Source of the DNA: Candidatus Magasanikiibacteriota bacterium
GTDB lineage: Bacteria; Patescibacteriota; Patescibacteriia; Magasanikbacterales; GWA2-37-8
Direction: 5' to 3'
NCBI GenBank assembly: GCA_016182085.1
Contig: JACOYB010000004.1
Location: 275,923-339,922, forward strand
DNA: 64,000 nucleotides
Under the pieces are notes generated by a model. The model was not told where the DNA came from. It was given only the letters and a program-made list of their open reading frames with translations, and searched no databases. The position numbers and the translations under genes are program-made. Of this stretch, positions 22,389-23,131 are shown one piece after another (within the stretch, counting starts at the first letter, position 1; each line of letters begins with the position of its first letter).

Positions 22389-22487
22389 AGAATTCAAGTC
22401 TGACTGATTGACAGCTAGACCCCGTTTCTATATAATATGTGTAAATTAAATATTCCCGGGTAGCGCAGCGGTAGCGCAGTTGGCTGT

Positions 22488-23026
22488 GTCACTAATCTGC
22501 ATCTATGGCAGATAAAAGAAAATATAGAGATCGTGCCGAATATCTCAAGCAGGCTGTTGATAAAAGGCGTAAGAAAATGCGCCAGATGGCTATTGAGTAT
22601 AAAGGCGGCAAATGCCAGCTTTGCGATTATAGCAAGTGCGCGCAAGCACTAGATTTTCATCACTTAGATCCGTCAAAAAAAGATTTTGGCATTTCTGCGG
22701 ATGGAATCACCAGAGCCTGGTCAAAAATAAAGGCTGAGCTTGATAAGTGTGTAATGATTTGCGCAAATTGTCATCGCGAAGTGCATAGCGGTCTCACGCA
22801 GCTTTCAACGGTAACGTTGATTGAAAAATGAGGTTAATTGACGGGAAGCCTAAGTCCGAAAGGATATGGTAATCCGCAGCCAAGTCCTCCGACCTAACGT
22901 CGGGGGAAAGGTTCAGAGACTATCCTGAAAGGGAGTAGGCCACAAGTTGTGGCCGAAATGCCTCATCTCCTATTTAAAAGTGGAGAATGATATAGTCCAC
23001 CCCTTTGCAAAAGCATTGGATAAGTG
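22488..23026 (+). mobile_element. group I intron (539 nt) carrying an HNH homing-endonuclease ORF
   Basis: The catalytic core lies after the ORF. It includes AATTGACGGGAAGCC (P-like), AAAGGATATGGTAATCCGCAGCCAAGTCC (P5/Q region; the 12-mer GCAGCCAAGTCC is identical to the Tetrahymena core), GTTCAGAGACTA (R/P7, 22911-22922) and GATATAGTCC (S/P7', 22989-22998). The ORF occupies the 5' part. Confidence 0.8.
22505..22831 (+). CDS. HNH homing endonuclease (intron-encoded)
   Basis: 108 aa. CQLCDY…ALDFHHLDPSKKDFG…ICANCHREVH is a canonical HNH motif with Cys/His zinc ligands. Confidence 0.85.
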   Translation: MADKRKYRDRAEYLKQAVDKRRKKMRQMAIEYKGGKCQLCDYSKCAQALDFHHLDPSKKDFGISADGITRAWSKIKAELDKCVMICANCHREVHSGLTQLSTVTLIEK

Positions 23027-23131
23027 TAACCAATTGGTCGTCGGTTCGAATCCGACCCCGGGAGCTTAGAAATCAATCTTTAGTTTGTGGTAGCGTCCGC
23101 CTGGGTGGATTAGCTAACCGCTAATCAGTCT

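Follow-up and report, generated by a model that had tools for sequence, protein, structure and literature searches.

A tRNA-Asn(GUU) gene of Candidatus Magasanikbacteria split by a subgroup-IA group I intron carrying an HNH-family gene

The window analyzed here is a 64-kb stretch of DNA (64,000 nucleotides) from a Candidatus Magasanikbacteria MAG of the Patescibacteria group; proteins encoded in it exactly match five NCBI entries within the range MBI2037628-MBI2037670. Positions 22454-23064 of its forward strand raise three related questions: which tRNA is encoded there, where are its two halves joined, and what is the role of the open reading frame (ORF) lying between them? An earlier note, made from the sequence alone, had proposed a group I intron with an HNH ORF, inserted between positions 35 and 36 of a tRNA-Asn(GUU). 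This proposal was supported by Rfam, by covariation among relatives, by a survey of possible splice junctions and by the occurrence of intron-less genes. The locus is thus very probably a tRNA-Asn(GUU) gene split at 35/36 by a subgroup-IA intron, with an HNH-family homing-endonuclease gene housed in the P1 loop of the ribozyme.

The split gene and its ribozyme

The tRNA-Asn gene is interrupted within its anticodon by a 539-nt group I intron (Table 1). When the two exons were joined, a 72-nt cloverleaf was obtained, with U1-A72, G73 and the anticodon loop CUGUUAA, which ARAGORN identified as tRNA-Asn GUU. U1-A72, G73 and the loop, together with the exon boundaries and the length of the intervening sequence, had been correctly described in the earlier note. 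In the unspliced window, ARAGORN made no tRNA call at 22454-23064 and called five other tRNAs. From its position, the consensus element at 22408-22436 would act as the promoter of the gene. A terminator was looked for 3' of the split gene, and none was found. The gene encodes no CCA, so that its product needs a CCA-adding enzyme.

Two other genes of the same window concern tRNA metabolism. A CCA-adding-enzyme-like gene is located at 56602-58077, and the GatA subunit of an Asp-tRNA(Asn)/Glu-tRNA(Gln) amidotransferase is encoded at 48241-49701. The presence of GatA hints that Asn-tRNA could be made via the indirect pathway. It is plausible that the cell depends on splicing for its tRNA-Asn; the tRNA scan covered the 64-kb window, and a second tRNA-Asn may be present elsewhere in the genome.

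Table 1. Positions of the split tRNA-Asn gene, its intron and the structural elements of the ribozyme in the window.
Feature	Position	Strand	Remarks
Putative sigma-70-type promoter, TTGACA-17 nt-TATAAT	22408..22436	+	12/12 consensus matches; ends 17 nt before position 1 of the tRNA
tRNA-Asn exon 1, positions 1-35	22454..22487	+	3' end GGCUGU, U35 = U(-1); ARAGORN; same sequence, joined to exon 2, in uninterrupted tRNA-Asn genes
Group I intron, 539 nt, subgroup IA architecture	22488..23026	+	last base omega-G 23026; Rfam RF00028 and covariation
Predicted HNH-type endonuclease ORF, 108 aa, in P1 loop	22505..22831	+	intact; motifs CxxC...HH...CANCH...H
Internal guide sequence ACGCAGCU	22796..22803	+	pairs with exon G30-U35 and intron G+1, U+2 (P1)
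P2 hairpin UCAACG-GUAA-CGUUGA	22805..22820	+	6/6 pairs covary; 98.8% of cells paired
P3 5' strand, with ORF stop codon UGA	22828..22834	+	partner 22960-22966; compensatory changes in 5/7 pairs
P4-P5-P5a domain	22839..22878	+	P4 = 22839-22845 with 22873-22878; 96% paired, 6 pairs with compensatory changes
P6/P6a	22879..22912	+	99% paired
P7 5' strand, G-binding helix	22916..22922	+	partner 22993-22998; invariant in 57/57 aligned introns
P7.1	22923..22934	+	81% paired in family; compensatory changes in 3/4 pairs
P7.2	22938..22954	+	72% paired in family; compensatory changes in 4/4 pairs
P3 3' strand	22960..22966	+	covariation alignment
P8	22967..22985	+	95% paired
P7 3' strand UAGUCC	22993..22998	+	covariation alignment
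P9 hairpin	23002..23019	+	two U-U mismatches in window copy; family 86% paired, 6 pairs with compensatory changes
tRNA-Asn exon 2, positions 36-73	23027..23064	+	begins UAACC, last base discriminator G73; no CCA encoded

The group I assignment had first been based on three core words, which were located at 22876-22887, 22911-22922 and 22989-22998. The Intron_gpI model of Rfam (RF00028) confirmed the core, matching 22743-23019 (+) over its full length (model positions 1-253) with 73.9 bits (E 7e-17), for a gathering cut-off of 50 bits. P7.1 and P7.2 hairpins are present between P7 and the 3' strand of P3, a mark of subgroup IA, to which the intron belongs. In P1, U35 (22487) is opposite G22798 of the guide, forming a U.G wobble at the 5' splice site. 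The guide is found 311 nt downstream of this site; therefore, the ORF occupies the P1 loop. P10 pairing was not evident by eye in the window intron. The P1/P2 positions of the Rfam model were placed on 22743-22830, a placement judged to be spurious, the real guide and P2 being at 22796-22820.

This architecture was compared with that of relatives, namely six independent loci on long contigs and 80 loci of species-representative genomes; at least 541 genomes encode a relative of the ORF, and the 80 loci were taken from these. A common layout was observed in every resolvable locus: a tRNA exon ending in CUGU, the ORF, a GCAGC guide, P2, the core, omega-G and then UAAC. Five homologous loci scored 65-86 bits with RF00028. 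Across 57 aligned cores, 91.1% of cells were paired in the explicit P2-P9 structure, versus 33-44% when the partners were slid. Compensatory changes were detected in 35 of the 50 pairs; P2, P3, P4, P8 and P9 covary and P7 is invariant. The window intron keeps every position of the core that is invariant in this alignment. Moreover, 69 of 73 distinct introns possess a +1:IGS-1 pair (G:C in 53, A:U in 15, U:A in one), and this covarying pair fixes the register of P1 with the U35.G wobble. G was the last base of the intron in 73/73 cases. On the exon side of P1, no covariation was seen at positions 30 and 31, where A31 and C31 variants stay mismatched. Flanking genes showed no synteny between the window and the 80 genome loci, within 1.2-kb flanks.

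A splicing pathway can be proposed from these features. The gene would be transcribed from the consensus promoter. As indicated by covariation, G30-U35 and the first two intron bases of the precursor would pair with ACGCAGCU to form P1, with U35 in the wobble pair, and the P3-P9 core would fold. Free guanosine would then attack 3' of U35, and omega-G 23026 would enter the P7 site, leading to exon ligation; a homologous intron performs both steps in vitro (PMC13011429). The expected product is a 72-nt tRNA-Asn, still requiring CCA addition. By analogy with the homologous intron, the window intron is probably capable of guanosine-dependent self-splicing.

The reading frame in the P1 loop

The 108-aa ORF had been described as an HNH ORF. 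Its integrity and its HNH motifs were verified, but the score against the Pfam HNH family (PF01844) was only 19.4 bits (E 0.0012), below the cut-off of 21.4. PF01844 was matched at E <= 0.01 by 11 of 12 relatives, and several homologues have a precomputed match to it. A profile of the family aligned its motifs with McrA and, at E 0.002, with the HNH domain of a maturase from a group II intron. NCBIfam gave no meaningful match for the window ORF, and a Foldseek search of the PDB with the structure model of the ORF returned nothing at E <= 0.001. The fold predicted for the ORF is a beta-beta-alpha-metal fold, with a CxxC...CxxC zinc site and catalytic His/Asn/His residues. Judging from its motifs, family profile and predicted fold, the ORF is a member of the HNH family.

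Homologues of the ORF are numerous (2395 at E <= 1e-3), and the nuclease family was found in at least 541 species-level genomes. The CxxC, HH, CANCH and H motifs are invariant in 60 relatives, and the window ORF retains all residues that are invariant across the family. For closely related pairs, dN/dS was 0.05-0.19 over the 95 codons outside the ribozyme overlap, indicating that the HNH protein is kept by purifying selection.

At its 3' end, the ORF shares sequence with the ribozyme: over 22796-22831, its final 12 codons and its stop codon also form the guide, P2, J2/3 and the beginning of P3. Thus, ACG CAG CUU of the guide corresponds to Thr-Gln-Leu codons, and the UGA stop is within P3. The conserved C-terminus of the protein family, 'TQL...(V/I)EK', can be explained by these codons doubling as ribozyme elements. 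In the structure model the final residues are disordered, which is consistent with dual coding.

Leaders, defined as the first 2-96 nt of the intron, were compared for 65 related loci. In 28 of the 65 distinct leaders, the ATG of the nuclease is preceded, at 4-10 nt, by TGnTAnnnT, an extended -10 box with forms such as TTTGCTATAAT and TGGTATACT; only 4 of the 65 contain a Shine-Dalgarno-like sequence. The frequency of the first signal and the rarity of the second suggest that the nuclease of the relatives has a dedicated promoter, from which it would be expressed as a leaderless mRNA. The leader of the window copy (22488-22504, 17 nt) has neither the extended -10 box nor a Shine-Dalgarno sequence, so that expression of the nuclease is uncertain in this copy.

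The ORF lies inside the intron, as that of a homing endonuclease would, and alleles without the intron were detected. The uninterrupted anticodon arm CAGTTGGCTGTTAACCAATTGGTC, identical to that of the joined exons, was present in at least 120 metagenome contigs, and the tRNAs extracted from contigs with CAGTTGGCTGTTAACCAATTGGTC were Asn-GUU in 108/108 cases. Intact target sites for a homing nuclease therefore occur in nature. The HNH protein is most likely a homing nuclease acting on intron-less tRNA-Asn genes: it would cut these genes, and repair would copy the intron into them.

We also considered that the intron might splice while the ORF product lacks homing-nuclease activity, being either domesticated, as a splicing helper or a DNA-binding factor, or silent in the window copy. 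The HNH scores of the window protein are indeed weak, this copy has no Shine-Dalgarno sequence or promoter of its own, and the strong purifying selection would fit another function equally well. However, this possibility is unlikely given the invariance of the CxxC, HH, CANCH and H motifs in the 60 relatives, the presence of the HNH family, at one and the same tRNA site, in several phyla and the abundance of empty target sites, as for a mobile element. Moreover, we know of no HNH protein acting as a group I maturase.

Even less support was found for a dead relic, in which splicing would be lost or the tRNA unused, decoding being ensured by an intact tRNA-Asn elsewhere. Such decay might account for the two U-U mismatches of P9 and for the shortened leader of the ORF in the window copy, but it is very unlikely in view of a core that retains all family-invariant positions, a putative promoter that is a perfect consensus, exons identical to functional-looking uninterrupted genes and an intact ORF with all family-invariant residues. 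In addition, intron-bearing and intron-less copies for one anticodon rarely coexist in a genome (PMC13011429).

The splice junction

The U(-1)/G(omega) rule is also satisfied by a junction shifted by two bases, 22485|23025. With a cut after U22485 and omega-G at 23024, the product would be a tRNA-Thr(UGU) with a 7-nt loop, CUUGUAA, interrupted at 33/34. This ambiguity, already pointed out in the earlier note, is real. ARAGORN and tFind frequently assign tRNA-Asn 35/36 introns to Thr(UGU) 33/34.

Therefore, all U(-1)/G(omega) junctions were enumerated by brute force in 76 resolvable homologous loci. Asn-GUU at 35/36 was possible in 75 loci and was the sole option in 22 of them. The shifted register gave Thr-UGU in 46 loci, which allow the same alternative as the window, but it lacked an omega-G in the 22 others just mentioned and led to different anticodons elsewhere (Thr-CGU in 6 loci, Leu in one). 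One locus seemed to be a Thr-only exception; it ends just past exon 2, and the call was attributed to this truncation. The register of P1 argues in the same direction, since the Thr junction would put U33 opposite A rather than G.

Intron-less genes gave a second line of evidence. Nine metagenome contigs contain an uninterrupted tRNA-Asn gene identical at 72/72 positions to the predicted spliced product. The body of the window tRNA is thus 100% identical to that of uninterrupted tRNA-Asn genes, and its U1-A72 and G73 are shared by 55-58 of 61 distinct ones. As the search pattern already included the Asn loop, a balanced Asn/Thr control was run on a collection of viral contigs, where uninterrupted anticodon arms of the Asn type were matched 61 times and those of the Thr type 0 times. 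Finally, when a homologous intron was spliced in vitro, sequencing of the product gave 35/36 (PMC13011429). Altogether, the junction survey, the P1 register, the empty sites and the viral-contig control decide the ambiguity for tRNA-Asn 35/36, and an intron at 33/34 of a tRNA-Thr(UGU) is extremely improbable.

Relation to known introns and distribution

The earlier note regarded an Asn host with an insertion at 35/36 as unusual, a view that is out of date. The number of tRNA-intron classes was raised from the four classical ones to 21 (Williams 2020, bioRxiv 10.1101/2020.01.27.920355), and 15 tRNA-Asn(GUU) 35/36 introns were reported from 95 complete Patescibacteria genomes (Nakagawa et al., mSystems 2026, PMC13011429; bioRxiv 10.1101/2025.07.03.662931). 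In the latter study, nearly all Patescibacteria tRNA introns, including the tRNA-Asn 35/36 class, were assigned to subgroup IA, and four tRNA-Asn introns longer than 500 bp encoded HNH proteins. The same two-base ambiguity was described, with mis-calls as Thr(UGU) 33/34. The tRNA-Asn intron of GCA_016700035.1 self-spliced in vitro, and the ligated tRNA was sequenced, which established 35/36 (PMC13011429).

The window intron was compared with the published intron and HNH sequences (Table S3 of PMC13011429). Host tRNA, insertion site, phylum, subgroup and the two-base Asn/Thr ambiguity are common to both, and the guide GCAGC and the 3' junction GUG|UAACC are the same. The HNH proteins from GCA_016699425.1, GCA_001029735.1 and GCA_000503835.1 are 54-60% identical to that of the window over 101-106 residues. 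The cores show about 64-67% identity over their full length, the intron of GCA_016700035.1 being at ~64%. P1 of the intron spliced in vitro is GGCUGU-uaaag-GCAGCC; its loop (uaaag) is short, so that the window ORF appears as an insertion into that loop. The window copy comes from a draft Magasanikbacteria MAG outside the 95 complete genomes and otherwise shows no difference in kind. It is therefore a further example of a published and experimentally validated tRNA-Asn 35/36 class, and not a discovery.

Resemblances to other introns are more partial. Phage introns of subgroup IA (such as T4 td, nrdB and sunY) also have a core with P7.1/P7.2 and an endonuclease ORF in a peripheral loop, the end of the ORF running into the ribozyme. 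These introns interrupt protein-coding genes, and their nucleases (GIY-YIG or other types) are mostly encoded in loops of P6 or P9, whereas in the window a tRNA gene is the host and the loop with the ORF is that of P1. The classical introns of tRNA-Leu(UAA) at 34/35, tRNA-fMet(CAU) at 33/34, and tRNA-Ile(CAU) and tRNA-Arg(CCU) at 36/37 are, like that of the window, group I introns of the anticodon loop, with U(-1), omega-G and a P1 formed from the anticodon arm. However, the classical bacterial tRNA introns are of subgroup IC3, most of them without an ORF (Williams 2020, 10.1101/2020.01.27.920355; PMC13011429), unlike the window intron, which is of subgroup IA with P7.1/P7.2, is inserted at 35/36 and contains an HNH gene.

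Among complete genomes, introns of subgroup IA with a homing-endonuclease gene at 35/36 had been found only in Patescibacteria (PMC13011429). In our set of loci, the HNH-bearing tRNA-Asn 35/36 intron was also found in Acidobacteriota (nine loci, one of them on the 5.54-Mb Pyrinomonadaceae chromosome OY970389.1), Elusimicrobiota (four loci) and Omnitrophota (one locus). The same intron family was present in one locus of Aerophobetes and in a Deltaproteobacteria MAG. Many loci tagged 'uncultured Gammaproteobacteria' appear to be mislabelled.

We tentatively propose a combined picture, in which the HNH-bearing tRNA-Asn 35/36 intron would be actively mobile across phyla (Patescibacteria, Acidobacteriota, Elusimicrobiota, Omnitrophota and others), its nuclease would be expressed from a dedicated extended -10 promoter through a leaderless mRNA, and the C-terminus of the protein would be fixed by dual coding with the guide. 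Taken jointly, these three elements are nearly as easily right as wrong. Compared with the 2026 paper, the additions are the P1-loop ORF dual-coded with the guide, P2 and P3, the occurrence in at least 541 species, the hosts outside Patescibacteria and the likely signal for leaderless expression. They are extensions of that paper for intron specialists and represent no new phenomenon.

For genome annotation, the consequence is that standard tRNA finders miss the split gene; the genome then seems to be without tRNA-Asn, and completeness estimates drop. Once found, split tRNA-Asn genes tend to be mis-called as tRNA-Thr. The locus is also another case in which a bacterium with a reduced genome is probably reliant on an RNA-catalysed step for a tRNA that it cannot do without, as earlier publications have pointed out.

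Other features of the window were also recorded. The gene upstream of the split tRNA (20205-22388, +) encodes a 727-aa Lys/Glu-rich protein, annotated as hypothetical at NCBI and without a convincing match in Pfam; the base composition of the gene is strongly skewed (GC skew 0.33). At 12899-12988 (-), a serine-type tRNA has a long variable arm, G73 and an encoded CCA; its loop, UUACUAA, gives the anticodon ACU, with A34. A normal tRNA-Ser(GCU), at 12119-12206, is 700 nt away. In bacteria, A34 is unusual outside tRNA-Arg(ACG). The 12-nt word ATCTCTATCTCT, which belongs to the 3' end of tRNA-Ser(ACU) (12899-12915, -), is repeated at ~12722-12733 (-), between the two Ser tRNAs. This repeat, seen by eye, adjoins a small ORF (12260-12697) and may be either the remnant of an integration site or due to chance.
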